DNA of 63,995 nt, the filler included, from Folioceros fuciformis (taxonomy: Eukaryota), in assembly GCA_049999805.1 (NCBI GenBank). It is 7 parts of 7 records of this genome, joined end to end, with 100 filler letters (N's around TTAATTAATTAA, not from the genome) between each part and the next. Parts side by side here need not be neighbours in the genome. Positions count along the whole stretch, not along the records: positions 15,518 to 32,279 come from JBNGIO010005073.1; 6 more parts are not named here. The stretch is one strand, 5' to 3'. A program made the translations under genes and the position numbers. The notes under the pieces are model-generated. The model searched no databases and had not been told where the DNA came from. It worked only from the letters and a program-made list of their open reading frames with translations. Shown here piece by piece: positions 3,452-52,750 of this stretch. Position 1 is the first letter of the stretch. Every line of letters begins with the position of its first letter.

Positions 3452-3672
3452 CGAGGTGGGAGTCTCACGCCAGAGACACTCTAGAATGCGAATTACACGG
3501 GCCGAAAAGAGCTGGTGAGCTGATTCTGCATGTTGTCAATGCAGGCCCCGGCAACCGTGGCGCTGAAGGCTCCAGAATAGATGCTCCCGGGCTGTGGAAC
3601 TGGGGGTTTGATCTACCTGTAGTCCCAGCATCGGGAAAGCTGTGGTGACAGCTGAGCTGCCTCGTGTGTGGA
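3452..3672. promoter_or_regulatory. Short divergent (bidirectional) promoter region between HCAR and the RraA-like gene
   Basis: Only 221 nt separate the HCAR ATG (-) from the first in-frame ATG of the RraA-like gene (+). Confidence 0.6.
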
Positions 3673-9045: not shown

Positions 9046-10297
9046 GTCTTAACGGATGTAGGCCAAGCTGCTGATTAGAAGCGGCCTGGCATGTATTTCT
9101 TGATGGTAGTCAGCTTGATCATCAACTAATTCTATTCTGATTAATCCGGGTCCCGTCCTTGTGATCGTACTCCATCTGCGACCTGACAGTCTGATTCACT
9201 ACCTGGGGTGTCAGAGCTACTTTTGGATGTCTACTATTGGCCTGTCACTCTTCGTTTCAAAGACGCAGCAGAGCCAGATGTGGCAATGAAGCTCCTGGAC
9301 ATAACCGACTTCTGTTGGCGCCCGCTGCAGTCACAGAGCGTACTGGAAAACTGGACAATATCTGGGAGTGGTCTGCAGGCACAACATCTCTTTTACTGAT
9401 TTCGTTCGTGGAGTTGGGAGAGGCGCGATTCCACAACCTGCAGAAAAAACTTTGCGATCATTTCAACCAAGCACGGTTCTGGTGGGTAGCAAGATTGCGA
9501 TTCCCTTCGCTGTGAGAGCAAATCAGTCCTAGCTCCTATTGGTTGAACTTTCTCCAAGCGGTGGTTTCTCCCAAGAGATTCTGATGGGGAACCCAACACT
9601 GACAAGTGAGCCTAGACGGATACGCTTCTTGGAAGCTCCTAGTTGACCTCCCAGTCTTGCTCTCAGCGGTGTGCCCGTCACCTGCACAGCAGGCAACCGA
9701 AGTTGCGCGCACGACATGGAGAGGCCAGAGATCTCTTGCATCCAACATTCACGTGGGCAAGCAAGCGGCCCCACAATTCGTCCATCATCCCCTGTCTCCC
9801 ACCCAAGCCCACAGATTTCAGCATTCTATAGCCAGGTCCACTGCAGCGTTACCAGAACACAGATGTCGAACACTCTAGAAACTTTGCTGACATTAATATT
9901 GGCTCCAAGCTTCACCCAAAAACTCGTAGGATCACATTGCCACAAAACACAAGGAGTGTCATCGTTCTGTGGCTCGGGATTGTTTAATCGTTTGCAACGG
10001 CGCGGGTGGTGGAGAGAACGTCAAAGGAGAGGACAGAAAAGCACATCGTTTTGCAAACACCGATTGAGAAAGATCCGAGAGCAAAGACGCCATGCATGGA
10101 GTCTAGCCGGCATTCCTTGTCGCAAATTTTTCAAGTCGTTCCCAAGAGACCCGTGAAGGAGAGAAACCCGGCAGCAGAAGCAGCACACACACACACACAA
10201 GTGAACGGAGGCAGGACAGAGGGCTGCCACACCGACCTGCTCGCTTTCCAGTCACAGGAACAGTCTACACCGCCAAAGCCAGGGGAAAAGAAGCTAC

Positions 10298-13017: not shown

Positions 13018-13519
13018 TCCCTGTTCTGTATGCCAACTGTGACAATTAAAGATGTCTATAGACCATATAGCGAAGCAATTACAGAAGCTCTCAATCTAGA
13101 TGGCGGATTTGAACAAATTGGGAAACAGCAAAGCAAATAAATGGTGCACAATTTGCACTAGGAAGGGGCATGTGGTTCCTGAACATTCTTTCAAACAAGA
13201 TGTGAGGAAACAAAATGCTCATCAAAGTCAACCAAGAGGAGGGCGAGAGCAATGCTTATTGTAGCAAGTTTGGACACATAGTGGATCCATGTGTATGGAA
13301 GTGGGAATTCTAGTCTAGGTGACTTCACTATCGAAGTGCACCTGTAGCGCTAGGGAGACTATAAATGACCTGTGCTATCACTATGACAATTTAACACCCA
13401 AGTATGAATCACACAAGACCAAAATCAAGTTGAAGATATAGAATAAGAATCCAAGGACAGTGAAAATAACTCTATACTGAGGAAGAAGGTATAAGAAGCT
13501 AGAAGTCTACAAATGAACT

Positions 13520-14341
13520 GGTGCGCACACAAAAATATCTTCGGCGTAGTCAACTGGCTCCTAGGTTGAGGCTTTCCTGGCATCGGCAAAGGGCAACGAT
13601 CAAACTGTTGTGGTCGACCTTAGGGATCCCCCCCAAGTGGAGGGTAACCATCTGGTGTTTCTTTCAAGCTTGCTTGCCTAACGCAAACCGCTGGGACGGG
13701 TTGTTGGTGGCCATAGGGGAGGAATGTTGCAAGCTATGCAGTGTTGGAGCCTCTCATAAAAGCCAACATATCTTCTTTCAGTACAACTATTTGCAAGGTA
13801 TCTGGAACAAAGTTGGCTGGTGGGTACAGAGACTTCTCCCTGAGAGAACCATCTGGGTTACTGAGCAAACTACCTTATTTAGGCTTGATGGGCAGTCGGG
13901 AGGGCCACTACTTCAGCACCAATGGTGGGGAGTGGTATGGTCTTTGTCTCTTTTCTCTTTGTGGCAAAATTGGACAGCAATGGTCTATGGCAGGAGTGAT
14001 CCGGTATCTAGGAAAGCTCTGTTATGGCGCATTTGGGAACAGGTCCTTGTGGTCGTGGAAAGCATTCGAACTTCCGCTCCCACTAAGTTCAGACGGAAAG
14101 AGTGGAAATTAGCAGGTTTCCTCCGACACAATGGCCAGTGGGACCACTCCTACTCGTGGGGCAGGCAAGTCCCATAAGGGCCGGGTTTCTCTTGGTCGCA
14201 GGATAGATCAGATTTGCTAGTTTTTTCAGCTTAGAGTTAGCTTGCATGCTAACTCCTTATTCAGTTGCATACGTAATTGTTGTACCCTTGCTGCAGCCTA
14301 AGCTGCGAATAATCAGATTTTTTGCTTCGTGAAAAAACAAA
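13520..14341 (+). mobile_element. 5'-truncated L1-like LINE (zf-RVT / C-terminal region) with A-rich tail and 17-bp TSD
   Basis: ORF 13521-14177 with LW...IPPK..VTIW...CLP...CKLC......HIFF...W motif; tail AAAAAACAAA; target-site duplication AAGTCTACAAATGAACT at 13503-13519 and 14342-14358. Confidence 0.9.
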
Positions 14342-24453: not shown

Positions 24454-26781
24454 ACAGCTTCCTTGCAGACCACATCTCCTCTGGAACCTGCTCATTCACA
24501 GCCTTACTAGGAGATCTGTTAATAAGATGCACCGTAGTAGCCACTGCTTATGCCCAAAATCCGTTAGGCAATCTAGAGTTTGTCAACAAACTATGAATCC
24601 TCTCCTGGATGGTCCTGTTCATTCGTTCAGCCACACCATTCTGGGGAGGAGTATATGGGGCAGTCAATTCTCTCTTGATTCCCTCGGAATCACAGAATGA
24701 CTGGAAAGCCTTCAAAACATATTCTCCCCCATTGTCTGTCCTTAGACACTTTAGTCGGAGGCCAAACTGATTCTCCGCAAGGGTGATGAATTTCTGAAAC
24801 ATTGTCAGAACATCATCCATTTCCTTAAAGGATAAACCCACACCTTGCGTGAGAAATCATCTATAAAAGTGACAAAATAGAATGCACCGCCTAACGATAT
24901 AGTGGGCATAGGTCCACAAACGTCACTGTGAACCAACTCAAGAGATTTACTTTTGTGTTTACCTCTTGCTCCATGTGGTGACTTTGTTTGTTTTCCATAC
25001 AAACAGTGCTCACACACGTAGAAATCAGAGAAGTCAAAAGTAGGGACGTAACCAAAACGAGATAAGATCTTCATTCCTTTTTGAGACATATGTCCTAACT
25101 AACAATGCCACAAGGAAACACTTGGCTGTTCCGTTACACAAATCACATGATCCTTGATAGTGGTTACCTGAAGTGAGTACAAAGTGCCACACTTCGATCC
25201 ACGAGCTAACATAAGAGAACCTTTAGAGATCTTCCAAGAATGATCTCCAAACCAATAGTGGTAGCCAGCGTCATCCAATTGCCCTGCACTAATCATGCTT
25301 TTGTCAACTTTGGAACATGCCTAACATCCTTCAGTATGAATGAAGATCCGTTGTCGAACTTTAGCTGCACATCACTAACGCCTGCAATCTCGCATGTGTA
25401 GTTATTTCCAAGCCAAACACATCCTTTCCTAGTAGTATCATAGGTGCTAAACCACTCCCTATGCGGAGTAACATGGAAAGATGCTCTAGAGTCAATTATC
25501 CAATTCGAGAATAAGTGACTATCCACGGCTGTCAGTTGTGTAGAATCGAAGGAAGAAGAGATAAGAACATCTGCATCGTCAACATAATTCACCTCGTTAG
25601 GCTTGATACTCAGACTTGCCTTGTTGTCGCTTTGCTTCTTCTCCTTTCCTTTGTCCTTCTTGAACTTTTCGCAGTCCCTTCTGATCTGACCCTTCTTGTG
25701 ACAATGGTAACACTCAACATTGTTACGACTACGAGATTTACTACGGGAAAGACTTCGCTCCTTGTACTTCCCCTTTGAAGTGGACCTTCCTCTCACCATG
25801 AGGGCATTGGAACCTTTCGAAGGTTCCAATTTCTTCCTATTCACCTCCTTTATTAATAGGCTACCTTCTACATTTACAACAGTAAGACCATTGGCAGGAG
25901 CAGAATTACTTAGAGCTGTATGAAATGTGTCCCAACTCTCTGGTAATGTGACCAACAGAAACATAGCTCTCACGGAATCTGGGAACGAGATAGCTTGAGA
26001 TGAGAACTAGATGAAAATGGTATTGAACTCATTCAAATGATCGGACATCCTCGTCTCTTCCTTCATCTTCAAGTCCAACAGCTATTTCAACCAGTACACC
26101 TGAGAAGCCACATTTTGCTTCTCATACAGGTCACACAACTTCTGCCATAGCACTTGTGGTCTTGTCTTTCACACTGAAGTAGACCAACTTCGACAATGTT
26201 AGTATGATGGTAGACCTAGCAAGCTCATCCAGATCATGGCACTCATCCTAAGTCATGCTAATAGGTTTCACTCCTAGCAACTTTATGGGCCCCGCCCAAG
26301 GCTTGCCCGCTGCGGGGCGGCCAAGCAGCCCGCAGGGCTGAGCCTGGCAGCTTGCACGGCCCGCGGTATGGGGCACATCCGGCTGCCTGGCTTCCGCTCT
26401 CAGTCTGTTGCGGCCTTTGCCTAGATGCCCATCTTCACAGCCTTGCGCACCGTGTTCGCAGCACCTAGAGCCATCACCCTTGCTCCACAATCCTAGCTCT
26501 GATACCAGTTAAAGGATCGCTAGAGGAGCCACATGGTGAAGGAGGAGAGGAGAAAGAGAGGTCACACTCTCACATAGAGTCTCAATAGCAAGGGAGCTCA
26601 AGGGGGTATTTATACCCTCTAGAAGAGCTCCCAAGGAAGCTTCACAAGAAGCGCATAGGAAGTTGCACAAGAAGCTTCCCACAGATTAGCTTAAGCTAAT
26701 CTAAACTAATGATACTTAACTAGACACTAATCTTAGACTAAACACATTAGTCTAAGCACATTGGGCTTTAATAATCCTACA
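24454..26781 (-). mobile_element. Ty1/Copia element C, 5' half, interrupted at the end of integrase by element B
   Basis: LTR ~26510-26781; PBS ending 26507; gag LLVTLPESW; CYHCHKKG; WIIDSRASFHV; LVHSDVCGP; PYTPPQNGVAERMNRT; junction at EEMWSARKL|. Confidence 0.92.
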
Positions 26782-28767
26782 CCTTGGCCTGCTATGGAGA
26801 GCTATTTTGAAAGGGTGCTTGATGTCTTTTAGTTACGACACAAGCTTCACACCAGGATAGAGGTTCTATCAAAGTAAGGGAAGGATTCCTGTAGAAATTT
26901 TCCTTAGACATTTGAATAAGTTTTTGGCTATAAGGATGACCTAATCGTCAATGCCAAAGTTCGGTTGTATTGGAAGTGACAGAATTTTGGGAAGCGACAT
27001 GTATCCTATCATGTGAGGATCCCACTTGGACAGACAATTTGTATAACCCATCCTCTAAAGTGCATGTGCATATGTTAACAGATTCACTCAGAAAATAAGT
27101 GATAATACAACTATCTGTGTTTAAAATGACTTGTAGACAATGTTTAGAACATAATCTAGCGGCTAATACTGAATTTTTACACATGGATGGTATGTGAAGG
27201 ACATTAGAGAGAGAAAGAACTTGGCCTGAAGAACATTGGAGAGCGACTGAACCTACACCAAAGATGGGGAGGTTGTGGTCATCCCCCAACAGGACAGTCT
27301 GGTGTCTGGATATTGGCGAATATGACTCAAAAGAGTTTTCGTTGTAACAGATGTGTAACGTAGCTCCACTGCCCAAGTACCAACTTGGGTTTGTTACCTT
27401 TGATAATGCCAAGCATACAGTGAGAGCTGAGGGTGTTGTGGAAGATTGTCTCTTCACGGCAATATTTGCTCTAGGCGTGGCCTCCTTTCTAGGCTCACCA
27501 TTCTTAAAAACCATTGCCAAACATCATATTCTTTTCCATTGAATCTTTCTCCTTGAAGCCTTCTCCATGAATCACCGTAGTAGGTGAATTAAATGTCTTC
27601 TTCTTCCACTCTTCTTCCCATGTGGCTTTTTCTTCAGCAAGCCATATTCTAAGTTTTCTGGCATTTGTGTCTGAATTTGTGACTTCGTCAATTACTTGTT
27701 CCTTAGACATTGCAAATGATGTTCAGAGTTAATGAAGATAACTGGATCGTGCTTGAGGTGTAGTCTTGTTGATGAGTTTTGGAGTCACGCGTGAGCACAA
27801 ACTGAAGTTCTTCTTTGTTCTTTTACAAGTATCTGTATTATACCTGATAGAAGGATTAGAAGTGTCAACTTCTCAAACAGTTAGATTGTTGACAGCTTTA
27901 GAGTGTAAGTTTATCTCTTAGGTAAGGTAATCCAATCTCACATTAGTTGAACTATCAATTTGAATAGCCTCTAATCTAATGGAGTTGAGTGTTTGTTGTA
28001 ACTTGTCTGAATTTAGGAAGAAAGGTGTAGTCTTGTTATAGATGAATTGAAAAATTGCGCACTCAATGCATCCAATTTGATAAAGGCTAAATGTTGAAAG
28101 CAAACTTCTTTTAGCTAATGTGATGGACTTTGTTTTGTGTTCAGACTCAAAGAGAAGAGCAAATATGAGATTGGAGCCATGAACTTCAAGCATATCATTT
28201 CCAGCAAGGGAGTTAGCATCAAACTCCTCTGATGATTCTTCTATAAAGTTTTGTCATTGCCTTCTCCTTCTCTGGGTCTTGACTTTCCACCTTCTTCCAT
28301 GTTTGCTAGGATTTGAAGAATTCATGCTGAGCGAACAAGAAATGGATGCACAAGTTGTGCATCCTTAGAACACTTGATGCTACACTTGATTGGTTCCCAG
28401 AATGAAGCATGCACGATGCATTGTTGACAATGGAAGAGATCTAGAATAACGTTGAGCAATAGGGAGCATAGAGCTTAAGCATAGAGAGTTAGTTGCTTTG
28501 ATACCATGATGAGAATCATAGCTCTTAGGCATGAAGTGCTACAATGAGAATTGCATTAAGAAAGTAAAGTGTACAAGCCTTTATATAGGCTAGGTGGTTA
28601 GGTGGTTACAACCATACATTGTTGTAACCACTAGGTAGTTGCAACTAATATAACAACTAACTACCTAGAGCAACTAAATAGGAAACTACCTAATGCCCTA
28701 GGAATAAATTAATGTCTAAGTAATATAGCCCTAATGAATAGTGCCCTAAACTAGATATATTTCATCA
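26782..28767 (-). mobile_element. Ty1/Copia element D, 5' part with internal gag deletion, interrupted just before the integrase core by element C
   Basis: LTR 28507-28767 (TGATG...CATCA); PBS ending 28506; extra ORF; gag ATG 27710 fused to the post-zinc-knuckle region; WYLGSGATLHI; LWH.RLGHP. Same family as 53425-56329. Confidence 0.9.
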
Positions 28768-29136
28768 CCCAGTGCGCTGGTCCTCCAACCCGGCTCCCGC
28801 ACCTACTTGCGAGAACCCTTGGCATTCCCAACCAGCAATTAGCTCATCGATGGGTCCCAAAGCCCGGATGGCCCTGTTGGATGTACCTGACGTCTAGAGG
28901 CAATGCTGCGAATGTGGCAGCCAATGGTGACTCTGGCAGTTGTGTGGGAAACCTTCTATGGGGCTCTTGTAAACGATGAGCAGCCATCTGCTGTGCTTCC
29001 CCGCTGTTGTCGTAGTATACATAATGCCAAATGGGGAGGCCTGCAAGGCTTCCAGGCCAGTGCAAATACCTTCGAATAGTTCGACCAGAAAGAGGCTTGC
29101 ACTTGGGATGGGCCAAGCAATCACCTGAGCACTAAC
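28768..29136 (-). pseudogene. Cytosine-5 DNA methyltransferase fragment (motifs I-IV), intronless, two frameshifts
   Basis: Three-frame reading: LFLVELFEGICTGLEAL (motif I-like FxGxxT) / LAGLPIWHYVYYDNSGEAQQMAAHRL...LPLDVRYI (motifs II-III) / IRALGPIDELIAGWECQGFSQVGAGAGLEDQRTG (motif IV). Bounded exactly by two LTR termini. Confidence 0.85.
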
Positions 29137-32100
29137 TGTAGGGTTATTAAAGCCCAATGTGCTTAGACTGATGTTTTTAGTCTAAGATTAGTGTCTAGTT
29201 AAGTATCATTAGATTAAATTAGCTTAAGCGAATATGTAGGAAGCTTCTTGTGTAGCTTCTTGTGCGCTTCTTGTGTAGCTTCCTGTGCGCTTCTTATGTA
29301 GCTTCCTGTGCGCTTTTTGTGTAGCTTCCTGTGCGCTTCTTGTGAAGCTTCATAGGGAGCTCTTCTAGAGGGTATAAATATCCCCTTGGGCTCCCTTGCT
29401 ATTGAGACTCTGTGTGAGAGTGTGACCTCTCTTTTTCCTCTCCTCCTTGCTTCTGAGTATCAAGCGTGACAAGGTGAACTCTGTTGATGATGGAGATGTT
29501 CTTATCTCTTCTTCCTTCGATTCTGCACAACTGACAACCACGGAGAGTCACTTATTCTCTAATTGGATAATTGACTGTGGAGCATCTTTCCATGTTACTC
29601 CACATAGGCAGTGGTTTAGCACTTATGATGCTACTAGGAAAGGATGTGTTCGGCTTAAAAAACTATGCATACGAGATTGCAGGTGTTGGTGATGCGCAGC
29701 TGAAGTTCCATAATGGATCTTCATCTTCGTACTGAAGGATGTTAGGCATGTTCCAAAGTTGACCAAAATGCATGATTAGCGTAGGGCAGTTGGATGACGC
29801 TGGCTACCACTGTTGGTTTGGAGATCGTTCTTGGAAGATCTCCAAAGGTTCTCTTGTGTTAGCTCGTGGATTGAAGTGTGGCACTTTGTACTCACTTCAG
29901 GGGTAACCACTGTCAAGGATCATTTGATTTGTGTAACGGAACAACCAAGTGTTTCCTTGTGGCATAATCAGTTAAGACATGTCTCGAAAAGGAATGAAGA
30001 TCTTATCTCGTTTTGGTTACGTCCCTGCTTTTGACTTCTCCGATTTCTCCGTGTATGAGCACTGTTTGTATGGGAAACAAACAAAGTCACCACATGGAGC
30101 AAGAGGTAAACACAAAAGTAAACCTCTTGAGTTGGTTCACAGTGACTTTTGTGGACCTATGCCCACTGTATCGTTAGGCGGTGCATCCTATTTTGTCACT
30201 TTCACAGATGATTTCTCACGCAAGTTGTGGGTTTATTCTTTGAGGAAAAAGGATGATGTTTCAACAGTGTTTCAGAAATTCATCACCCTTGTGGAGAATC
30301 AGTCTAGCCTCCGACTGAAGTGTCTAAGGACAGACAATGGGGGAGAGTACGTTTTGAAGGCTTTACAGTCATTCTGTGATTCCAAGGGAATCAAGAGAGA
30401 ATTGATTGCCCCGTATACTCCTCCCCAGAATGGTGTGGCTGAACGGATGAACAGGACCATCCAGGATAGGATGCATAGTTTGTTGTCAAACTTTGGATTG
30501 CCTAACGGATTTTGGGCAGAAGCAATGGTTTCTGCAGTGCATCTTATTAACAGATCTCCTAATAGGGCTGTGGATGAGCAGGTTTCAGAGGAGATGTGGT
30601 CTGGAAAGAAGCCGTCTTAAAAGCATCTACGAGTGTTTGGCTGCAAAGCATACTACCATGTTCCTAAGGAGTTTCGGGACAAGTTGGCTCCTAAGTCAAG
30701 AAAATGTATTTTTCTTGGCTATGGTGAATTTGGTAAAATGGGATACCGTTTGTGGGATCTAAAGGCCAAGAGGATGGTTTGCAGCAATGACATGTTCTTC
30801 AATGAGGTCAAGATGCACAAGAAGCCTACTCCAACTATGGAGGTGCGATGGGTGGTCTTCCAAGAAGATGGACTTGATCGTCCCACGCAGGTTGAACGTT
30901 ATGATGTGCAGGAATAAGTTCCTCCACTTGTAGAAGAGGAGAGAGTGCAACCAGCTCCCATCGAGGCACCAGTGCTTCGGAGGTCAGGAAGGATTTCATG
31001 TCCTTCTGACAGGTATGTTGCATCTCTTGATTATGTCATGCTGACAGATTGTGGGGAGCCCTCTTGTTATCAAGAGGCCTTGTCAGTGACTGACAAGGAC
31101 AAGTGGGAGAAGGCGATGCAGTTGCAGATGGATTCGCTCCATAAGAACCAAACTTGGGAGTTGGTTTGATTGCCTAGAGGCTTGAAGGCATTGCCATGCA
31201 AATGGGTGTATAAGATGAAGGACATACCCTATTATGGCAAACCTAAGTACAAGGCACGATTGGTTGATAAGGGTTTTAAGCAACAACAAGGTATTGACTT
31301 TGATGAGATTTTCTCGCCAGTTGTCAAAATGACCACCTTGCAATGTGTTCTTGGTCTGGTTGCGAGGAACGACATGGAACTTGTCTAGATGGATGTGAAG
31401 TCGGCATTTCTGCATGGTGATCTCCAGGAAGAGGTATACATGCAGCAACCAGAGGGTTTCATTGAGAAGGGCAAAGAGAATCTGGTGTGCAGGTTAAAGA
31501 AGAGCCTTTATGGTTTGAAACAAGCACCCAGGGAGTGGTATTACAAGTTCCACTCATTTATGCTTTCTCAAGGCTACAAACGTAGCGATGAGGATCATTG
31601 CCTCTATATGAAGCAAGCTAAGGATGGAAGCTTGCTCATTCTGGTCCTCAATGTGGATGATATACTAATTGCTGGGACTAACAATGATGATATTTCAGCA
31701 TTGAAGTCAAAGTTGAATGCTCGCTTTGACATGATAGACTTGGGAGAGGCAAGCCATATTCTTGGCATGCGTATTCGTCGAGACAGACAGAAGCGTTTGC
31801 TGTACTTGTCTCAAACTAAATATATTAACAAGGTGCTTCAACGTTTCAACATGGAGAAGGGGAAGGTATTGAGTACTCAGTTGCCTCCATATGTGAAATT
31901 GTCGAGCAAGGATTGCCCAAGCTTTGCGGAGGACAAAGCTAAAATGGAGAAATGGGAGTGGTTAGCAGGTTTATGTCAAACCCTGGTAGGAAGCATTGGG
32001 AGGCAGTGAAAGGAATTATGAGGTACTTAAATGGTATGAAAGCTTTGTGCTTATGTTTTGGTAGTGAAGATGCATCTGTCGTGGGATATACGAATGCTGA

Positions 32101-32424: not shown

Positions 32425-33528
32425 TAGGCTGTCTACCTATGACAATGAGTGGGAATGGTAAGGAACCTACCTATGAGAGGAGAGGTAGGGAACCTACCTA
32501 CGAAGGGAGCAACAGGGACCATACCATGAAGGTGACATCCTCACCCTACGTAGGGAAGGAACCTCAAGTTGAAGAACAAGTATATCCCTTCCCTACCAAA
32601 CCTGTAGGTGGTGGTGAAGGGATATCCCAAGAGATCCACACACAGGAAGGTACGGTGGAAGTTCGATCCAAAAGAAGACGAATCCCAATAATGGAGGGGG
32701 TCCCAGTAGCTCAACCTTCATACTCTGCCTTCCTTCAGGAGCAATCCTAGCCACACCTCTTTGGAGAGAGGGTTAATGAATCTTCTATGGCAGTGCCGAC
32801 AGTCCTAATCTTCAGCGGCGCGCACTGCCCTAGCAGTAATTGGTAGGACTTAGCCTCTTGGTAGGTGTGCGTAGTTAAAGTTGGTGGCGCCTAGTGTGAG
32901 AGAAGGGTAGCCCACCACCTACACGTAGGAGAGGGTTCATGTGTCGATCTCTCCTATAAGGAGGGGCTACACAAAGAAATGAACACCACATTCTGCACTC
33001 TTCTCATGGCAAGTTCTCATGCTCAGCAGAGCGTAGGAATCTCGTTGCTGGCTGTGTGCCATCACAGCGCCTGGTTGTGGCTAGAGTTGCAGTGGTCGAA
33101 GTGCTTGGCAGAGAGCTCATATTCTTTCATGGGCACCCCTACAAGTTGCTTCCCTTGTGAATGGTTGTTGTGCTACTGTAGGTGTGTGGCAATACCTGTA
33201 TGACTGTTGGCTTGAGGGTAGACTCCAGGGAAAGACTCCCTGGAAGTTCTCGCTAACAAGCACAAGCACGCAACAACCGGCCCAAGGAAAAACTTGTCGG
33301 GCCGTTTTTTGGATAATGAGTGTTTTGTGACAAATAGTGAATCAACTTTTGTAAACCTGCGTGGACATCCTGGCGGAAGGGGGAGCTGTGAGTGCCCTTT
33401 CTGTTGCCAATCGCAAAGGTTCTTCTAGTGTCTGGTTGGGAGTGTTGAACGCAGGGAGAAGAGAAGTTGGATCGCTATGGAAGGTGTTGCGAGGAGACTT
33501 GTGAGGAAGGGGTGTTGGGTGTAGGTAG

Positions 33529-33978
33529 TTAGAAATCGGTAGGGGAAGGTACTGGGGCCCTTTCAAGTGAAGGAATGGTGCCTTCCTACCAACTGGACGT
33601 GTTGAAGGTATGCGCTAGGGAAGGTTGAATGTTGAAGGTGAGCGATAAACACAGTTGGGGGAGCGTAGCAAGCTCGGAGGAAAACTTGGTCGTTGGGCGT
33701 AGGGAGATAAGCAGCTAGATTGTGGGTTAAGGAAGGTGTTGTAGGGAGCCTTGTGAGGAAAAGGTATTGAGTGCAGGGAGGTAGAAATCGGTAGGGGAGG
33801 TACTGGGGCCCTTCCAAGTGAAGGAATGGTGCCTACCTACTGACTGGACGTGAGGAAGGTGTTGTAGGGAGTCTTGTGAGGAAAAGATATTGAGTGTGGG
33901 GAGGTAGAAATCGGTAGGGGAGGTATTGGGGCCCTTCCAAGTGAAGGAATGGTGCCTACCTACTGACTGGACGTGTTG
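33529..33978. repeat. Imperfect direct repeats; three copies of a ~70-bp core
   Basis: Core TAGAAATCGGTAGGGGAGGTACTGGGGCCCTTCCAAGTGAAGGAATGGTGCCTACCTACTGACTGGACGTG at ~33530, ~33782 and ~33905. Confidence 0.85.
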
Positions 33979-34019
33979 CAGGATTGGCAGGTACGCGATT
34001 GGGAGGGTTGACTATTGTA

Positions 34020-35370
34020 GGGGAACGATAGACATAGCTGACCAGGCTCAGAGGGGAGTGATTCCGAGGAAGCTTACAACGACCGTGGGATTGATGTGGC
34101 CACGATACATGTGAGCGGGTGCCTGGTAGGGATACCACACCCGCTTGCCCACAGCATGTGTGAAGTTGACCTATTGAGCTGCCACCCTTGCGATCCTCAG
34201 GGCTCTCTACAAAATTAAAATCACCTGCCACCAGCCAGCTAATAGCAGGGTCAAGACGGTCCTTCATCCTTCTCCATGTCGTAGCTCGGAGGCAAGGTGT
34301 TGTAGGGGCATAAACATTGCACACCCCAACCACCCCTCATTGGAGGTGCAGTGACACCCATTGGAAGCAGAAATCCGTGTCCGTGCCATGCTCCCGAATT
34401 TTATCCTATAGTGACTAGTGGATTGTGATTTCCAGCCCTCCTTTGGATCCTTAGGCTGGGGCCCAGAAGGTCTGCCCCTGGATGTACAGCCGTTTTAGTG
34501 CACGGTCCTGCACCTTTCTTGCATCCAGCTTGTGCTCCTAGACATAGAAGATATCCCAATCGATCGACGATTGGGCATACGCTAATAGGGCTCTGCACTT
34601 GGAATGTGTCTTGAACCAGCGCGACAATTCTCTCACATTCCAGGAGATTACTTGCAGTTGTTGGCCTGTGACATGGCCTTGGTGGTGTGAACGACATTAG
34701 ATCAGTTGGTGCTTGTCGGCCATAGCTGTCACGGGAGCCAAGCAATTGTCAGGTGAGAGTTCAACCTGACTGTTGGGCTCTGGAACTGTCACAGGGTTGG
34801 TGAGTTTGGGCCTCTCGATGCCAAACGCCTCCTATGCCAGCCATACCCAGTCTTGTCGTCGTGGGACTACCCTGGTCCCTCCTTGCAGTGTAATCCATGC
34901 AGTGATTTGCGATGTAGAGTGGGCTGGGGAGACGGCTTTGGACTCTGGTAGGAAGAGGAGCAAGTCATCCCTCTCGAGAGCACCGCCCTCCCCTAGGATT
35001 GTAGTCGTAGCATCCAGCGCTGTCTTCCTCGAGTCTGAGGCCACCTCTAGGAATCGGGTTACACCGTCTTCCAGCTGCCACAAGGCCTCAGTTTGCTCGC
35101 CTTTTGCCCTGAAAACCTTGATCGTGGCACAAAATTGTGAAGTAGAGGTCAGAGGGAGAATGTCTGGGAACGAAAGCCCGTCATCCGTCGATGGAATAGC
35201 GTCCTACATCTCAACGGACTGAGTGTTAATTGTAGCCATTGGGGGCACGGCTTCACACGTGCTAGTGCCTAGGACCCCAAAAAGGGATACAAAGTTTGCC
35301 CTAGTCTCCTTGGGGTGTTGAGAGTGTTCCTGCTTCCGTCCGCCCTCTAGGTGGGAGTCACCTGTCGCTA
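34020..35370 (-). mobile_element. L1-like LINE fragment (ORF1 remnant and APE endonuclease), degenerate
   Basis: VGVCNVYAP...W...WLVAGDFNFVESPEDR in 33956-34333; boundaries approximate. Confidence 0.75.
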
Positions 35371-40684: not shown

Positions 40685-41015
40685 GTCATTATTCTCCATT
40701 ATGCCGCTCAACCCTAAACCCATTTTTCTCCACGATGCTGATAAAACCCTAAATCCGTTTCGCTCTACCATGCCGTTAAACTCTAAACCCATTCTGCTCC
40801 ACCATGGTGCTAAATCCTAAACCCATTTTGCTCCACCATGCCACTAAACCCTAAAAACCCATTCTGCTCCACCATGCCACTAAACCCTAAACCCATTATG
40901 GTCCACCATGCCGCTAAACCATAAACCCCCGCTACTATGCTATACCTCTTAAATCTAAACTCATTTTGCTCCACCATGCCGCTAAGCCCTAAACCCTAAT
41001 TGCTTGCTCCACCAT
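40685..41015. repeat. ~34-bp minisatellite (about 9 copies) containing the plant telomere motif CCCTAAA
   Basis: Consensus CCCATTCTGCTCCACCATGCCACTAAACCCTAAA. A separate ~46-bp direct duplication follows at ~41140-41231. Confidence 0.88.
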
Positions 41016-41777
41016 GTCGTTATACCATTCTGACACCAATCTGCTATGCTATTCCTACAGCCCTCCTACCCCACCCCTACACCACTTATACTGTTGATTT
41101 ATATCACTTTATACAACTCCTACACCACACTATCACATCGCGCCTACATCACTTATACCCCTCCTACTCGCTCTTAATTGTATAGCGCCTACATCACTTA
41201 TACCCCTCCTACTTGCTCTTAATTGTATAGCCCTTGCATCCCTCCTACGCACATTGCTTTACTCTACAATGCTCTTGTACCCATCTGTAGAGGAAAAAAA
41301 CTTTCAACACTCCCATTTTGAGTGACAGAATTAGCAAGTTGCGATTTTTTGTGTGAAAGGAGGAGCAAATCGGCTTAGTATGTGAATAAGATAGGGGTAT
41401 TCATACCCAAAAGTGGCCTTGGTCTTTTGGGTGTTTGGGACACTAAAGACCATGATCTGGAAGTGGGTGAGCGAGTGTGTCCTTGGGCCTTGGTGGTTTG
41501 GGGACACTTAGGTGGTTATATATGCACCCCTCCCTTGGAAAATATGGAATAGAAATGAGTAGGGAAGGGGGCTAGCTAGTTGTGGATTTAGGAAAAAGGA
41601 TGGGTTGAGGTGACTGGGCGACGATGGCCAGCGGGGCAATCGTCGCGAAAAGGGCGACTGGTGGTAGTCCAACTGGCAGTAGTGAGAGAAGAAAACGGCC
41701 AGTATAAAAACCCTAAAGGGAAGTCTGGAGGGGAATTAAGTTATTATTCGAAACGTGAAGGGCAGTAACCCGGGAGC

Positions 41778-43610
41778 GTGAAGGTGGCTGGAAGGGAAGC
41801 AGACGCTGAGGCAACAGGACGGGCCGAGGCAAGCAGCGAGTACTCAGCGAGAGAGGAGGGACCGCAGAAGCCGGAGCACGAGGAGGAGGTTGGCAGGATG
41901 AGGTCGCGCCCTGAACTGCTGCCTGGAGTGACAGTACCCGAGCAGGAGGGGGAACTCCCTGTTCCCCGGATCGACCTACTCCTGTGGCCCAACATGGAGC
42001 ACTGGAGGGTCAGAGCAGGAGGGTAGGTGGATGAATTGGGTCTTGGTTTCATGACCCAGAAGTGGAACCATGCAGCGCCACAGTTGGTCAGGGAGTGCAC
42101 CCTGAGGTTGAGGGAACCTGTCCGTGAGAAGGGGATCAGAGGCAAATCGCAGGGGTGGAACCTGGAGCTAGTAAGGAGGGTGTATGGCCATGACCAGCGA
42201 GAAGAGGGAGGATTGGTGTTGGAGCCCTGAGGAAACGGGGAGGTATAGGAGACGCTGAAAAATTGCTCAAACCAGGCACAAAGAAGGAGGCTAACGGATG
42301 GTTGGTTCGCGACATGGCGAGCCCACAGCTGAAGGGTCTGGCCACGTGGTTTCTTAGTTTTCTCCAGGTTCGCAAACAGGATTATCTGTCTGACCAGATG
42401 CTCCTATTTGTGCATGAGGTAGTGAAGGGGACCAAGATTGATTGGGGAAAAATTCAGTATGCCAGGATGGACAAGGAGAGGCAGAATTTGACCCTGCCCT
42501 CTCCTCAGCCCTCGATGATTTTCCCGTTTCTAGTTCATATTTATAGTTATGCTAACCTGGTGTCGGAACTGGAGGTGTTTGCTTCACTGCACATGTGGAG
42601 GCCAATCAGGGATGTAAAATGGAATCATGCTGAGCCAGTGAAGGCTGACTAGCAGTTGGGCGTCGGGGAGTGGGGACAGCTTGGTAGGGGAGGTTCCCGT
42701 CAGGCCTAAGAAGAGGACAGCAGCTCAGAGGAAGACCCTTGCCAAGAGGAGATGGGTCAACGGGCAGAGCACGAGAGGAGGAAGTAGGCCGAAGACACCG
42801 GAGACAGCCCTGGAGTGAACCGAAGGTCAAACAGAGGAGCAGGTTGTACAGGAACAGGAGGTAGAACAGGAGTTCGCTGACCAGGGAGTCACGGATCAAG
42901 GATTGGAGGAGCAGGGGTAGGATGAAGCAGGGCTGAAGGAGCCTCAGGAGCAGACATTAGCCACCGAGTTAATTCCTCCCAGGCATGAGAGCGAATTAGG
43001 GCACGTTTCGGCGCAAGGAGCTTTTTTAGGATGGGAGGAAATCTTCAGGAGCATTCCTCAGAAGGACAGGCTGCAGGTGGGAGACCTGGAGAAGCTGAGA
43101 GAGTTTCTGGGCAAGCAGATTACGGCGAGAGGAATGACTGTTGGAGAAATGCAGGCGGTGGATCTGCCAGGGCTAACTGCCGCGATGGTGCAAGCCCAAG
43201 CAGATCTCCTGGACCAGGCTGCTAGGGCATTGACCTGGCTGATTGTGCAGGTGGAACGGGAAGCCGAGGCCCGAGGAAAGGAAGTAGAGGCATGCCAGCA
43301 GGAGGCTGAAGCACGGAGGCTACTGGCAGAATCAGAGTCGGCGCGGCAACTGCTGGAGGAGAGACAGCGGGTTCTGGATAAGGAGAGGGCACAAGTTGAG
43401 GAAGAGGCATGCCAGGCGAAGGCCGAGGTCCAAGCGCTAAGGGAGCAACAAGGGATCCTACTAGCTCAGGTGAGGGAGGCCCATGAGACTAACCTATAGA
43501 TACAACAGGAGATGGCCAAGGCGCAGGAGCTGGAGATAGCAGTTGTGGAACAGGCCCAGAAGCTGGCTGACAGGTACAAGCGAGAGCGAGACGAAGCTAG
43601 AGAGAGAGTG
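41778..43610 (+). pseudogene. Degenerate antisense accessory ORF of the LTR element (helical domain plus C-terminal coiled coil)
   Basis: Collinear + ORFs 41778-42026, 42027-42230, 42263-42652, 43077-43499 broken by stops and frameshifts; E/Q/A/R-rich heptad-like C-terminus; TATAAAAA at ~41703. Confidence 0.6.
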
Positions 43611-43944
43611 AAGGGGAAGGGTAAGGTTGGGTGCCCAAGTTAAACGGCGACCCCAGTAGCTGAAGGGGCTACCGGTAGTCGAGCAGACTACCGGTAGCCA
43701 AGTAGTCGCCAGGGCTACCGGTAGCCCGGCTGAGCCCAAAGTAGCCGAGGGACTAGCCTTGGGGACCAAGGAAGAAACAGCGAAGGCGCCTGAGCTTAGG
43801 CGCTCTAGGAGATTGATCTGCACCAGAAGGATAGAGCTGGAGGAAGCAACAATTGGACGGGTGAAGGAACTTCAGGTACCCCAAAAAGATGGGGAGCAGA
43901 CAGCTTGAGGTAGCCCAAGGGAGGAAGGGGTAAGCACCTCCTTT

Positions 43945-44433
43945 ATGACAGAAGGTCGGGTTGTGCTGCAGTATGAGGAGGAGGCTTCCTATGTGCCAGG
44001 TCTTTATGTGGAAGGGGCCAGAGTTCTTAAATTGTTTCCGTATGTACGTATGGGCACAGGAGGGACGTGGGGCTACGGCCTGCATCTGAGGACCTGCAAG
44101 GGACTCTACCGCTACAGCTGGTGGATGACAGGCCTGCCCCATTGCTACGCAGAGGCAGCCCTAGAGGAGCTGACGGAAGAAGAGGCCCAACGATGGGTAG
44201 AATGGGAGCCTGTTGCCATCCTCAGTAACCAGAGGAGGAGGGGGAACAGTGGTTCTCAGCGGCGGGGCCCACCTGCGCCGCCGCCGGAAAGGTCCAGCAG
44301 CAGTAGTGATGTAGAGATCCTGTGGGAAGATTTGCCCAATCAGTGGAGGGGTAGGAGAGCAAGAGGGGGACCAGTGAGAGGAGGCGCGCGCAGACTAGGG
44401 GGAAGGCGCCAGCGGTGTGGAGAGAGGCGATAG
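43945..44433 (+). CDS. Uninterrupted 162-aa orphan ORF inside the LTR element
   Basis: ATG to TAG with an aromatic/Gly-rich N-terminal half and an Arg/Gly-rich tail; family not recognised. Confidence 0.45.
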   Translation: MTEGRVVLQYEEEASYVPGLYVEGARVLKLFPYVRMGTGGTWGYGLHLRTCKGLYRYSWWMTGLPHCYAEAALEELTEEEAQRWVEWEPVAILSNQRRRGNSGSQRRGPPAPPPERSSSSSDVEILWEDLPNQWRGRRARGGPVRGGARRLGGRRQRCGERR

Positions 44434-46252
44434 TAATTGCAAGCTAGGATATTGTTCTTTTTGGAATGCTTTTACTTGGACTTGAGCCGCTTGGAATTTA
44501 AGAGCGCCAACTGAACCCTGATAGACTTTATAGCAGAAAGACCGCCACCACCATGTATAAGAGGCCAGTTTGAGGCCCTGGGAAATTAGCAAAAATCAAC
44601 CCAACCACTCAACCTTGCAGGAAACTAGCAATGGCCGTTGCTGGATAGGAGGTCCAGGCAAGCAAGCGCATGATGTGATCTGGGGGTGTGGGTGCAGGTG
44701 GTGGACGCTCCATGACTGAGCCCGGGGACGAGTCGGGAGGTGGAACCTCGCCGAGTGGGAGACGAGCTCCCTAGCTATCCTCAGGGCAATCACGTGGGGT
44801 GGTGAAGACGTCGGAGCCGAATCCACGAGATCGGAGTAGAAGCGGGTATCCCTTCCCTTAGCCCTGGTGTCTCAGCATTCCTTAATTTCATAGGAGAAGG
44901 CCCGGCGGGGCAGGTTCGAGTGTGGAGTCTAGAAAATGTGAACAGGTGAAGAAGCAAGATTGAGAAGGATAGCGAGAGTGAGTGCGTGACGTTGAATGGT
45001 CATCAGGACAGGACTGCGCGACTGGGGGTGTGTATGTGAGAGGTGAAGAGTGGAGGCAGAAGTATGAGAAGGCTGCATGGTGGAAGCCGCCGAGGCCCAT
45101 GTGAGAGAGGAGTGGATTGGAGACCATAATCGAAAAGGGAACCTTTGGAGGCGCGGTGGATGGGGTGCTGCGAATTGTGGACGAGTGCCCGGAGTGAGAG
45201 GAAAAGAGGAGTCATGGAAGTGGAGTCGCTGAGTCGGAGTGATTGAACGCCAACAGAACCCTGGTGTGTAGCTGAAAGGCGATAGAGCGTAAAACGGTCT
45301 GGGATCGGGCTGAGGTTGCATGGATAGATTGGGGTCTGTACTGCCCGAGGTCCATTCACGACTTTATGAGTGTCGATGTGTGCACGACGGACGCTGGTGC
45401 GTTTCGGTCGAGGCACATGAGAACTGGCAAGTAAGGATGGAGGTCTGTGAGTTCGCAGGTGAGCGCGACGAGGAGTAAGTTGCTGGTGGTTTTGGAAGGC
45501 AAAGAATTGGTAAGTAAGTATTAGAGGATGAATCCATGTTAGAGAGAGAGAGGGAGAGACAAAGTGGGACCCACTGGAGTAGCCGAATGGGCGACCGCTA
45601 CTCGAAGGGAAACGGAGGTAGTCCTGAGCAGAAGTAGTCGTAGGGGCGACGAAGTGGTCGAGGAAATTGAAGAAGTGGCCGGAGCTGGGGTCGTCAAGGA
45701 GCCAGGAAGAGTAGGCGCATCCGAATGTGACTTGCGTAGTTGGGGCGTGAAAAGTGAGGGTCCTGAGGAGTTAGGTACCCTTAGGGTAGTAACTGATTTT
45801 GAGAGGAAACCTGTGTAGTTTGACACAAATTATTCCCTTGGGATTGAATCTTAATGCTATAACAACAAAGAGGGTTTGTGTGGACCTCGCTGTACCCCCG
45901 GGTACAATATTTTCCCCCACACCATCCCTCCACACTACTCTACCATACGCCCCACACCACTCTATTGCTCCACACACCTTTTTAAGGAAAAATAAAATTT
46001 TATTTTTTAAAATAAATAAAGGAAAATAAGAGGAAAAAGGAAAGAAATTAAAATTAATAGAAAAGGAATTAAAAGAGAAAATTAAGGGAGAAAAAAAAGG
46101 AGAATGATAATGGGAAGGTAAAAGAAAAAGGGTTTAGGGAATGGGAATGGGAAGCAAAATAGGAGTGGGAGTGTGTCCCACCTGCTCACATTCTCAACTT
46201 GCTCAGGCTCTACTAATCCTCCATGTGCTGCTTTCCTCCCAGCAACATGGGG

Positions 46253-46352
46253 NNNNNNNNNNNNNNNNNNNNNNNNNNNNNNNNNNNNNNNNNNNNTTAA
46301 TTAATTAANNNNNNNNNNNNNNNNNNNNNNNNNNNNNNNNNNNNNNNNNNNN
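46253..46352. other. Artificial contig linker
   Basis: N44-TTAATTAATTAA-N44. Confidence 0.98.
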
Positions 46353-46739
46353 TCATATGGCCCTGACCATGTCTAGGGTTCTATGCCTAGTAACATCCCG
46401 ATGCCACCCGCTCCCATACATGTGATACCTTTCTGACATAGAGGGGAGAGAGAGAAACTCCCGATGTCCCGAAGTTCCCGAAGCTCTAGGTATCACCACA
46501 ATTGAAGATGACGAAGGCCCATCGTACGTAGATCAACTAGAGAAAGAAAACCTTCACGAAAGTTCTTAGACTCCATCAATGGTTGTGTGCAGGAGGAGTT
46601 GGCATGTTTGGTAGATGCTGCAGAACTACGAAGCTTGAAGGAAGCATTCCAAACGAAGCTTGAAGGAAGCATCCCAAGGTCCAAAGGCAAAGGAATGGAG
46701 AGAGGCTGTGGACAATGAATACCACTCACTTACTAAAAA

Positions 46740-46920
46740 TAAAATTAAGACAATCACTCCTCTACTTCTTGGAAGGGAAAACATAGGGTCCAAGTGGACA
46801 TTCAAGTTCAAGCCAAAGGCCAAGAGTAGCATATAGCGCTACAAGGCAAGGACGAAACACATTGAAGTCAAGCACCAAAGGACACACTCGTTGATATTCC
46901 AACTAAGAGTCTAGCCTTAG
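46740..46920 (+). mobile_element. Internally deleted Copia relic (RT N-terminus fused to RNase H C-terminus)
   Basis: IGSKWTFKFK...RYKAR runs directly into TKHIEVKH...DIPTKSL. Confidence 0.65.
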
Positions 46921-47429
46921 AGAAACATATGAAGTTTATAAAGGAAATTAAGTTAGAAATACTTAGATTAAATATGTGTTAATTTCATAATCAGTTATAA
47001 CCAACACCAACAGACCTTGTACATATGGCTCATTATTCAATTATGATAATAACCACTTTTCATTTTCCTAAGCCATCAACTTTCTCGTGCTCGTGGTCGT
47101 ATCCCCAGCCTACTGGCTTCCATCGCGTTATGGTATTAGAGCCAGCATGATTCTACCCACGAGCAATCTCTCCAACTGGTTTGACCCACAGATGAGGAGC
47201 ACTTGAAGATGCCTAGGCGTTGAATCCTTCCGTCTCCTACGCCGATCAGTGATGTCTCTGCTCAGACTGCTACCTGAACGAAGTCCACACAAGACGATCC
47301 AGTGCATCAGCAAAGTTAGGAGTGCAACGCACCTCGTTGCGCCATCTACCTCACACCCTGAGAGTCCTCATCCGGTAAGGCGTTCCTCTGCTCTGTTTCC
47401 CGACAGTTCCGCCCTCAACAAAAGGTGTT

Positions 47430-47662
47430 TAGTGGGAGTGTTAGAAACCCATAGGGTTTGTGTAACACATCTAAACTATAATATGAAGAGTGTATCCTAG
47501 GATATATAGGATAATACCGGGGTCGAGGTATTGTTTATCCTCACTGGGGGTATTGTTATGCTTAAAAGGCTATGTATGTATGTGTGGGCTATCAATCTGA
47601 ATGTACTCAACCAGGGATTGATCTTGGGACTCATAAATCTTGGGACTCACTGTTTTCTAACA
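47430..47662 (+). mobile_element. PPT and 224-bp 3' LTR (47439-47662)
   Basis: AGTGGGAG followed by TGTTAGAAA...TTTCTAACA (perfect 9-bp terminal inverted repeat). Confidence 0.8.
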
Positions 47663-48104
47663 GAATCTTTCATCGCAAAGAGGTGAGCGCGCTTCGCCCA
47701 GATACGCCAGCCACACCCGTGCAGTTTCCAGCTCACTCTCTCACACAGATGTCTCCGTGTGGAGCATATCACCATCTCGGAGGTGAAGGAGCATCTGGTG
47801 CAGGCAGGCTTGGAGATGCGGCTTCTGAAAGCCGCGTAGCGGAACACAGGCAAGCGAAGTCTCAGACAAGGAAATAACGTCGGTGATTTGTTTCCGTCAC
47901 CTAGAAAGCATAGGTACACATACATTGGTCCAAACTTAATCCGGACCCGGCCGTGGAACGAACCACGACACGACCCGAAAACGACACGATATTTGGGACG
48001 TAGTCAGGTGTGTAGGTAGCTTCTACACGTTATGTATGTATGGACTGCGCATGAACAGGCGCCTGATTATTGTGACGGGTTTGTTAGCCCGCCTAGAAAA
48101 GCAA

Positions 48105-48638
48105 TCAGTGGATAGCGTTTTTTGTGATCTTGACGTTTTTGTTCTCGGCGTAGACGTTATTGAAGGCGGGGCCGTGGGAGGGACGCAGGCCGAGCTTGGT
48201 CTGGATGCCGCCGGTGTTGGTGGCCCAGTGCGGGGTACCCAGCGCGTTGTAGAGCACGACGTTGCCGTCACACTGGAGAATGATGAGCTTGGGGCCGTCC
48301 TGAAGACCCGCAGTACCGGTCGCGAAGACGGCGGAGCCGCCGGCCGTGTACACAACGGCGTTACCGTCGCGCTGCAGCAGGAAGTAGCAACCGGTGCCGA
48401 AGCCGTTGGTGTTGGAGGCCCAGATGGCTCTGTTTGAGGAGTACAGCACCAGGTTGCAGTCGTCTTGCATGATGAAGATATAGTTGCCCTCGGTGAGGCG
48501 GGATCCGGCCGCAAGGTAGTAGCCATCCACCAGAGTGTTCCATCCCGCCACCGGCGCCACGCCCTGCAACGCCACCACCAGGCCTAGGATGGCCAGTGCT
48601 GCTGAGCGACCCAGCTGCGTGTATGAACGGCCCGCCAT
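48105..48638 (-). CDS. GNA / bulb-type mannose-binding lectin with signal peptide, intronless
   Basis: ATG 48636-48638; hydrophobic AALAILGLVVALQGVAPVAG; three QxDxNxVxY sites (QDDCNLVLY, QRDGNAVVY, QCDGNVVLY); IWASNT and HWATNT; C-terminal extension; minus-strand TATAAA at ~48717. Confidence 0.93.
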   Translation of the reverse strand: MAGRSYTQLGRSAALAILGLVVALQGVAPVAGWNTLVDGYYLAAGSRLTEGNYIFIMQDDCNLVLYSSNRAIWASNTNGFGTGCYFLLQRDGNAVVYTAGGSAVFATGTAGLQDGPKLIILQCDGNVVLYNALGTPHWATNTGGIQTKLGLRPSHGPAFNNVYAENKNVKITKNAIH

Positions 48639-49827
48639 TTTGGGAATGTCTGCTGCAAACGTGCCTGGAAGTTTCAAGTGTGGGTGTTCTGGTCAAGGTC
48701 TTGTGCCTTGCTTTATAATCTTCACCCCGACGCGGACTGGATGTGGCTGCAGTCACCCAGCCAGCTGCATTTTTGTCCTTGTTGCTAAGACCTAAGGATG
48801 AAGTCAGGTGATTTCTCTTCTTCAGTCCAGAATATGCGGCAGCCAGCCCAGCCTAAGCTTGTTGCGTGGGCTGAGCTCTTGTCCGCACCCTCCAATGCGA
48901 GCTGCAGCCGCTAGGTAGACACCAACCCCGCTCCATTATTGTCCTTGGAGCCAGCCGAGTCTGAGTTTTATAGACTTCTTCTCCACAATCAGTATGAGAT
49001 GCGGCGCCGACCCAAGCTTGTAGTTGCATGAGCTGAGATCTGGTACGTACCCTCCAAAGATCAGGTTTAGATAGAATGTACATGTACTGCAGGTAGGCAT
49101 CTGGCGTCCAAGAACGATACGTCTGTGCACTGGGTTCACCATGACAGAAGTTGCTGACCAGGGTATTGTTTGTTTTCCTGCTCCTGCGACCATGCGATCC
49201 ACGCCTTGGCCAGGGCAGTGGGCGTTTAGACTGGCGCCGTCTATTTGCATGCCTTGTCACTCCGCGGGTGCCAAAAAGGGAGCGACAAAATACATAGGGC
49301 AGATATGTAGAGTACAATTGTGCCCACCTGAGCTGTTGCCACGTGGTGCTCGAGGCCAATGCGGATAGGCTTTGTCGTCTCGAGCAGGAGAGTATGGGTG
49401 AGCCTGGAGCGGGCAGAGGAGCATGGCTCCCAGCGTGGTGATGCCAGGCCGGGCCTGCAGCGCGTTCGCTCGCTGCGGACCAGGACAGACTCGTGGAGCG
49501 AGTGGGCCGTGCAGCCGGTCAATTGCAAGCCTCGCATCCTGCTGTCCAGGCCGGACAGGACCTGGGTTTGGAGGGGGAAAGGGATGGGGAGTAGTTGGCT
49601 TGCGCAAGGATGTCGGGCTCAGAGTGCAATCGGCGCGTGGGGCGGCTGGCTTGGAGGGAGAATCCGATGATGCGGATGGTCCAAAGGTGTGCGGAATCGG
49701 TGACGTGTCTGTGTGTACTAGCTAGTAGGACGTGACTGTGTGAGATCGGTTGGTCATCAGGATGGAACTGGAACGTGGAGGGCGTGAATGTGACTCAGCC
49801 ACTCTGATGGTGTAGCGCTGGGTGCAG

Positions 49828-50640: not shown

Positions 50641-50732
50641 GTGTGTGCACGTGGTGCATCTTTCACTACCTCGGGTTGTCATCCTCCGAGTCGTCTTTGC
50701 TGTCTAATGTGGCTTCTCGACAGCAACCTTCC

Positions 50733-52559: not shown

Positions 52560-52750
52560 CTCTTCAACTCTTCAATTGCGCTCCCTTTCGAAATCGCATC
52601 TGGACCCCTTCCAACTTAACTTAGGGTTTTATACTCGTCGGGTCGCTTTGGTTCCACTACCACCTGGAGCGCTACTATCGGTTGGCCTTCCATGACGGTG
52701 GTTCACCTTCCACCACCTTTGCTGAGTCACGACATCCCTATTTTCTAGCC

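Follow-up and report, generated by a model that had tools for sequence, protein, structure and literature searches.

A frameshifted DNMT3-like methyltransferase relic between two Copia elements of Folioceros fuciformis, probably left by a Ty3/gypsy retrotransposon

The window (the whole stretch of Folioceros fuciformis DNA analyzed here, 63,995 nucleotides including filler) contains, on its minus strand between two Copia elements, a 369-base stretch (28768-29136) in which C5-methyltransferase motifs I-IV are found in three pieces. As judged from homology, this stretch is a relic of the N-terminal third of a cytosine-5 methyltransferase domain, DNMT3-like and of the gypsy-DNMT family, spanning positions 2-121 of the about 330 positions of the family profile, and it is present in one copy in the window. 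The features of the locus are:

28768-29136, minus strand: the relic, covered (29136-28768) by tblastn of P0003 residues 78-203
29043-29136, minus strand: piece 1, with motif I and the lead-in to it (ELFEGICTGLEAL); 17.7 bits over profile positions 2-29
28868-29044, minus strand: piece 2, motifs II-III (YVYYD ... LPLDVRYI); profile positions 29-85, E 5e-10
28768-28869, minus strand: piece 3, with the catalytic loop of motif IV (IAGWECQGFS) and a G.G.GL.D.R tail; family profile E 1.5e-14
28894-29181, minus strand: six-frame ORF of piece 1
28844-29131, minus strand: six-frame ORF of piece 2, in a shifted frame
28765-28893, minus strand: six-frame ORF of piece 3, in the frame of piece 1
29042-29043: frameshift 1, where other copies in runs X1 and X2 have 7 extra letters
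28867-28868: frameshift 2, where other copies in runs X1 and X2 have 2 extra letters
28507-28767, minus strand: 5' LTR of Copia element C (TGATGA...TCATCA), 261 bases, cutting the 3' side of the relic
26951-27523, minus strand: Pol_BBD of element C (Pfam)
29137-29450, plus strand: 5' LTR of Copia element B (TGTAGGG...), cutting the 5' side of the relic

Pieces 1 and 3 lie in the same frame and piece 2 is shifted. The frame common to pieces 1 and 3 holds one TAG between them, the frame of piece 2 is open at that place, and the true frame there is the middle one. In the relic the motif I sequence is ELFEGICTG, its second Gly being replaced by Cys just as it is in P0004, and motif IV reads GWECQG, in which the catalytic Cys is kept and Glu replaces Pro; the two motifs stand in canonical order and spacing, with collinear profile positions. 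Neither motifs VI (ENV), VIII, IX and X nor a target-recognition region were found in the window by regular expression, by Pfam on 216 ORFs or by the family profile. With two frameshifts and two thirds of the domain gone this copy is dead, and it is unable to make an enzyme because motifs VI-X are missing. A reading of the locus as three pieces joined across two frameshifts had been put forward in the earlier note; the pieces are present as claimed, and the shifts lie at 29042/29043 and 28867/28868.

The decisive profile was built from 42 relatives with the window left out, and all six-frame ORFs of the window that reach 15 aa, 2595 in number, were searched with it. Only the three pieces of the relic match, all on the minus strand: piece 3 at 28768-28893 (E 1.5e-14, 50.9 bits, profile positions 84-121), piece 2 at 28847-29131 (E 5e-10, 36.0 bits, positions 29-85) and piece 1 at 28897-29181 (E 1.8e-4, 17.7 bits, positions 2-29); among all other ORFs the best E-value is 0.68. 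In the frame of piece 2, residues 204-262 of P0007 and 64-120 of P0031 align to 29044-28868/28874 with 39% identity, and the best relatives are 44-48% identical to the window pieces across 117 residues. A match to Pfam PF00145, which the earlier note had named as a check, is found for piece 3 alone (E 0.0012, 18.8 bits) and lies under the curated gathering cut-off of 22 bits, a score that the relic, which covers about a third of the domain, does not reach; translating the shared frame with X in place of its TAG gives 16.1 bits, no gain over the single piece. In the protein atlas, 28 of the 30 matches to piece 3 are PF00145 clusters (score 0.93), and together with the three adjoining collinear profile matches these clusters uphold the claim of a C5-methyltransferase relic with motifs I-IV.

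Searches with single pieces gave less. When solved structures were searched with phmmer, the sole match to piece 3 was 3g7u, a bacterial enzyme (E 0.13), piece 1 had no match, and matches of piece 2 to PhnI were set aside as chance. Word-indexed searches for longer proteins with pieces 2 and 3 as queries returned no match, and in viral contigs none of seven pattern matches to piece 2 was confirmed. The read-through of the shared frame (P0001), which is out of frame in its middle, was compared by phmmer with 1.84 billion representatives and gave 31 matches at E <=1e-3, 22 of which carry PF00145 and one no Pfam family; the other eight (P0002, P0008, P0009, P0012, P0016, P0023, P0025 and P0026) are low-complexity artefacts of the out-of-frame query middle and were dropped before alignment. 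A Closterium member of the family was found through this search.

Logan contigs from three runs of one sample (X1, X2 and X3) were placed on window positions 27800-30100 at 80% likeness. The 7-letter insertion at 29042 is carried by two different contigs per run (X1 depth 25.6 plus 11 of 83.9), and the 2-letter insertion by one contig per run at 28867 and another at 28868. As 7 + 2 makes nine extra letters, the sister copies keep one frame, and the two frameshifts are genuine mutations of the window copy. Position 28844 is covered by nine diverged contigs, the listed pieces of which differ at 22-31 of about 230 letters; the pieces are about 87-90% alike, and several diverged copies are present in the reads of the same organism. 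Summed contig depth is 100-270 over the relic vs about 10-22 at 27800-28340, depth not being equal to copy number. The sister-copy contigs, at most about 400 bases long, are too short to reveal the flanks of the domain in the Folioceros fuciformis genome. Of the 12 related metagenome loci in which all three pieces are matched, nine have them in a single frame, while L029, L034 and L036 each have a shift of their own. As a separate observation on the same interval, run X3 shows C>T at 122 places vs 2-35 for each other type of change, an excess that is what a bisulfite-type library would give; this run could reveal the methylation state of the repeats at 27800-30100.

These results bear on whether the resemblance is due to chance or the stretch to bacterial contamination, an explanation to which the sub-threshold Pfam score and the bacterial identity of the best single solved-structure match of the motif IV piece (E 0.13) lend some color, but which is refuted by three collinear profile matches, down to E 1.5e-14, with none other among 2595 ORFs. 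The frame-keeping indels of the sister copies, the plant Copia LTRs that adjoin the stretch on both sides and the eukaryotic origin of the relatives likewise speak against it, and we regard it as scarcely credible.

The relic abuts two LTR starts, both facing away from it, with termini at 28767 and 29137; two Copia elements thus do flank the fragment, as had been claimed. The primer-binding site of element C (TGGTATC) begins at 28506, and the start of its LTR, TGATGAAATAT, recurs at 53425 with another flank. The LTR of element B, which has a match in that of element A (26539-26781), is followed on the plus strand by Pol_BBD, integrase and RVT_2, and its start at 29137 is the exact point of divergence for 34 contigs of run X2. 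Homology to the methyltransferase family reaches both LTR junctions. As the window shows no 3' LTR of element B or C from which target-site duplications of the Copia elements could be read, the order of events, with the Copia insertions later than the DNMT element, is inferred; CACTAAC as a duplicated target site occurs at a frequency at chance level. The Copia A/B LTR family itself (29137-29450 and 26511-26781) is extremely abundant in the reads of the organism, with a summed contig depth of about 74,000 at 29109-29185 vs about 10-20 in nearby low-copy sequence. Elements A and B are oppositely oriented and point apart, and B has neither a primer-binding site nor gag.

The window yielded none of the gypsy-type domains of the relic's family (protease, RT, RNase H or integrase): tblastn with nine long polyproteins matched the relic alone, and Pfam gave transposon domains of Copia and LINE type only, both on 101 ORFs with a minimum of 110 aa and on 115 ORFs in 20-41 kb. 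The gypsy-type domains are missing beside the relic because the copy is truncated on both sides. Elsewhere in the window there are numerous Copia fragments, a relic of a LINE-like endonuclease, and genes of the host. Among these genes are an RraA-like aldolase ORF (3649-4338, plus strand, E 1.3e-48), which is grouped with Streptophyta by the protein atlas, and a PHO1-like gene whose exons encode SPX and EXS (5293-9048, minus strand). LINE-type relics are seen at 33956-34336 (minus strand; a weak Exo_endo_phos match, E 0.031, with a GDFN-like motif) and at 13503-14174 (plus strand; a zf-RVT domain, E 2e-5). In a G+C-rich block (41700-52600, 52-57%), both strands hold many long ORFs that overlap one another and match no Pfam family at E <=0.001 save for a weak DUF1995 match; within this block 50845-51377 is a repeat family with units of about 100 bases. 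Tandem arrays lie at 40687-41028 (34-base unit, about 7-10 copies) and 33476-33982 (about 123-base unit, 3-4 copies). Twelve runs of exactly 44 N (at 11119, 11175, 15418, 15474, 32280, 32336, 46253, 46309, 52751, 52807, 59682 and 59738) form six pairs with 12 bases between members; at least the pairs 32280/32336 and 59682/59738 are inside or beside Copia coding ORFs, and the runs look like masking rather than assembly gaps.

The kind of methyltransferase was assessed with the profile of alignment A1, which comprises 12 short relatives. Against solved chains its first 29 rows are all DNMT3A/3C/3B (E 3.5e-16 to 1e-12; e.g. 2qrv), followed by M.HhaI (2e-11), tobacco DRM (NtDRM, 5.5e-9), DRM2 (2e-5) and DNMT2 (1e-4), with no DNMT1 row among the matches listed; the ranking of these first rows favors DNMT3. 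The G.G..D.R tail, called 'bacterial-style' in the earlier note, is instead a trait of the family itself, whose best matches among solved structures are DNMT3A/B/C rather than bacterial enzymes. The gypsy-DNMT family and DNMT3A/3B/3C share FxGIxTGL in motif I, DVR before motif IV, and AHRxRxxWxN; they differ in the catalytic loop (GWEC/GWPCQG in the family vs GSPCN), in that no PWWP or ADD domains accompany the family domain, and in that the latter sits after a retroviral protease. The full domain of intact relatives has ENV, AHRxRxxWxN, ERExAMGF and RRxxLG motifs. The DRM enzymes of plants, which are streptophyte relatives of DNMT3, match the family profile weakly and have a permuted motif order, unlike the relic with its canonical I-IV and its family with I-IV followed by VI-X.

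Pro precedes the catalytic Cys of this loop in nearly all such enzymes. GWECQG is found in 13 of 18 aligned relatives and WPC in four; decay of the relic as the source of its Glu is thereby ruled out, this being a trait of the family. Among the metagenome loci WEC occurs in L001 alone, which is also the best match of the window there. The intact family enzyme would presumably methylate DNA, and its WEC form may do so. In an unrooted FastTree tree (55 rows, 117 columns), from which P0078 was left out for having too few aligned columns, so that there is no outgroup, the window groups with P0003 and P0004 (support 0.80) within a clade of 10 that includes P0039 and P0040 of Calypogeia (support 0.85), both of which have a protease upstream of the DNMT.

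The architecture of complete members is seen in P0037, a Ty3/gypsy polyprotein of 2138 aa with the methyltransferase between protease and RT. Its domains, in residues, are:

399-415: zf-CCHC
607-654: aspartyl protease
777-953: DNA_methylase
1252-1411: RVT_1
1500-1602: RT_RNaseH
1724-1778: Integrase_H2C2
1796-1890: rve

The order in the family polyprotein is Gag-protease-DNMT-RT-RNaseH-integrase, and on this domain content the carrier of the relic's family is of Ty3/gypsy type. A search for longer proteins with the A1 profile gave 40 matches, of which 36 contain PF00145 and 19 have an extra retroelement domain (protease in 14, Retrotrans_gag in one, RT and/or RNase H in three, rve in one). The named sources are Marchantia polymorpha (14), Calypogeia fissa (2), Sphagnum (2) and Mesostigma viride (1), in agreement with the claim that the family occurs in land plants; another match, P0078 (E 2.7e-4), is a fish DNMT3-like protein and the sole host-type DNMT3 in the comparison set. 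A metagenome scan gave 53 loci, 36 of which (L001-L036) belong to the gypsy-DNMT family, L037-L053 being weak or unrelated matches that were left out. RT lies behind the DNMT, on the same strand, in 23 of these 36, and RNase H and integrase come after it in most of them. The sequence of most of the remaining 13 ends at the DNMT domain or shortly beyond it; a few (L027 and L030) extend for more than 1.5 kb past the domain with no RT match. By homology, then, the methyltransferase domain of the relic is that of elements with a gypsy-type pol. Carriage by a retrotransposon, as proposed in the earlier note, holds for the protein family (P0037; RT after DNMT in 23/36 loci), and for the relic in the Folioceros fuciformis genome the linkage to a retroelement is one that we infer from relatives.

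In L003, a 1369-aa frame (protease and methyltransferase) precedes a 1047-aa frame (RT, RNase H, integrase and PHD finger); a single stop separates the two ORFs, which share a frame, and L002 is alike. This arrangement of the Gag-protease-DNMT and RT-RNaseH-integrase frames suggests stop-codon read-through. The single in-frame stops are at 5083-5085 in L003 and 4661-4663 in L002, and many relatives of 1330-1450 aa stop directly after the methyltransferase. The pol frame ends, after the integrase, in a PHD finger (PF00628; L003 5086-8229, E 2.6e-10; L002 4664-7807, E 4.3e-10), at a place where many gypsy elements have a chromodomain; these elements thus combine a methyltransferase and a histone-tail reader. 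Comparison of the methyltransferase regions of L002 and L003 (dN 0.17, dS 1.38) shows purifying selection on this pair. A terminal repeat of 307 bases is found in L015, and the repeats of L034 are arranged A-coding-B-A-B.

The layout of L034 is DIRS-like, and this, with the signs of rearrangement around the relic (A and B are one family facing apart, B lacks a primer-binding site and gag, and no 3' LTRs are seen), would fit another vehicle, i.e. a DIRS-like element, capture by a different transposon, or rearrangement in place of two clean Copia insertions. We consider this very unlikely: every relative with context has an rve-type integrase and gypsy-type RT/RNase H and no tyrosine recombinase, and homology extends to both LTR junctions, as is expected of truncation through insertion. 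It is also improbable, though it deserves weighing, that the stretch was never mobile at this place and is a fragment of a host DNMT3-like gene, a processed pseudogene or a domesticated transposon-derived gene. The domain is DNMT3-like, no gypsy-type retroelement domain adjoins it in the window, and several relatives are annotated as plain proteins in which PF00145 alone is recognized, all of which such a host origin would explain; on the other hand the nearest relatives P0039, P0040 and P0062 have a retroviral-type protease upstream, and many diverged copies of the stretch are present in the reads of the organism. Moreover the fish protein P0078 scores 32.9 bits with the 12-row A1 profile (N-terminal half) vs about 105 bits, summed over the window pieces, with the 42-row profile, a contrast that is indicative only, since two different profiles are compared.

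The reading that we favor, and hold to be quite probable, is that the relic is a dead DNMT3-type methyltransferase fragment that was once encoded in a Ty3/gypsy LTR retrotransposon of gypsy-DNMT type, as part of its polyprotein. In the intact relatives the first reading frame codes for Gag (with a zinc knuckle), an aspartyl protease and the methyltransferase, with RT, RNase H and integrase next, either fused or past one in-frame stop, and the enzyme would form the C-terminal end of a Gag-protease-methyltransferase precursor. Two Copia insertions 369 bases apart would then have taken away all save motifs I-IV, and the remnant would afterwards have lost 7 and 2 bases relative to its sister copies, so that its frame was broken twice.

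The nearest described system is KnitGypsy-Dnmt3 of Klebsormidium nitens, in which a gypsy retrotransposon carries a Dnmt3 (de Mendoza et al., 2018; PMC5890265). In the passages of that paper available to us, it is like the relic's family in having an intronless, non-rearranged Dnmt3-type domain within the gypsy LTR polyprotein of a streptophyte, and its repeats are arranged A-coding-B-A-B (Fig. 4c legend), the same layout as in the related locus L034. It differs in its source, Klebsormidium, whereas the present relatives are from liverworts, mosses, Closterium and Mesostigma (the likeness being one of description, not of sequence), and in that the window copy is a truncated, frameshifted relic. 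The same passages describe SymbioDIRS-Dnmt3 and SymbioLINE-Dnmt of Symbiodinium, in which a methyltransferase is likewise retrotransposon-encoded but the carriers are a tyrosine-recombinase DIRS element and a LINE rather than gypsy, and which are reported as independent acquisitions; SymbioDIRS-Dnmt3 domains gave de novo CG methylation in yeast, and the outcome for KnitGypsy-Dnmt3 in the same assay was inconclusive (PMC5890265). A 2026 bioRxiv preprint cites, in the portion available, 'streptophytes (Gypsy-DNMT3)'. No description of gypsy-borne DNMT3 in land plants was found in full-text literature searches. We therefore call the relic another member of the Gypsy-Dnmt3 kind, already known since 2018, whose occurrence in land plants is undescribed in the literature searched.

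Beyond this locus, it is possible, although we put it forward only tentatively, that gypsy elements with their own DNMT3-type methyltransferase form an old, streptophyte-wide lineage that reached land and is multi-copy in liverworts, mosses and this genome, with some members intact and under purifying selection, the DNMT being placed at the level of Gag in ORF1 and combined with a PHD-finger integrase, and many members having Glu for the catalytic Pro. If this is true, land plants host transposons able to write cytosine methylation themselves. Transposons with a DNA methyltransferase of their own reverse the usual picture of the host silencing the transposon. To our knowledge, methyltransferase-carrying transposons have been described so far in dinoflagellates and one charophyte alga. 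A relic that is itself enzymatically useless has led to a family that is found, within gypsy polyproteins, in publicly deposited sequences from Marchantia, Calypogeia, Sphagnum, Closterium and Mesostigma, and whose proteins sit unnamed in public bryophyte annotations. For annotation this means that such domains inflate DNMT gene counts and can pass for host DNMT3 genes. Whether these elements methylate their own DNA or that of the host, and to whose benefit, is a question that is now testable in tractable land plants such as Marchantia.
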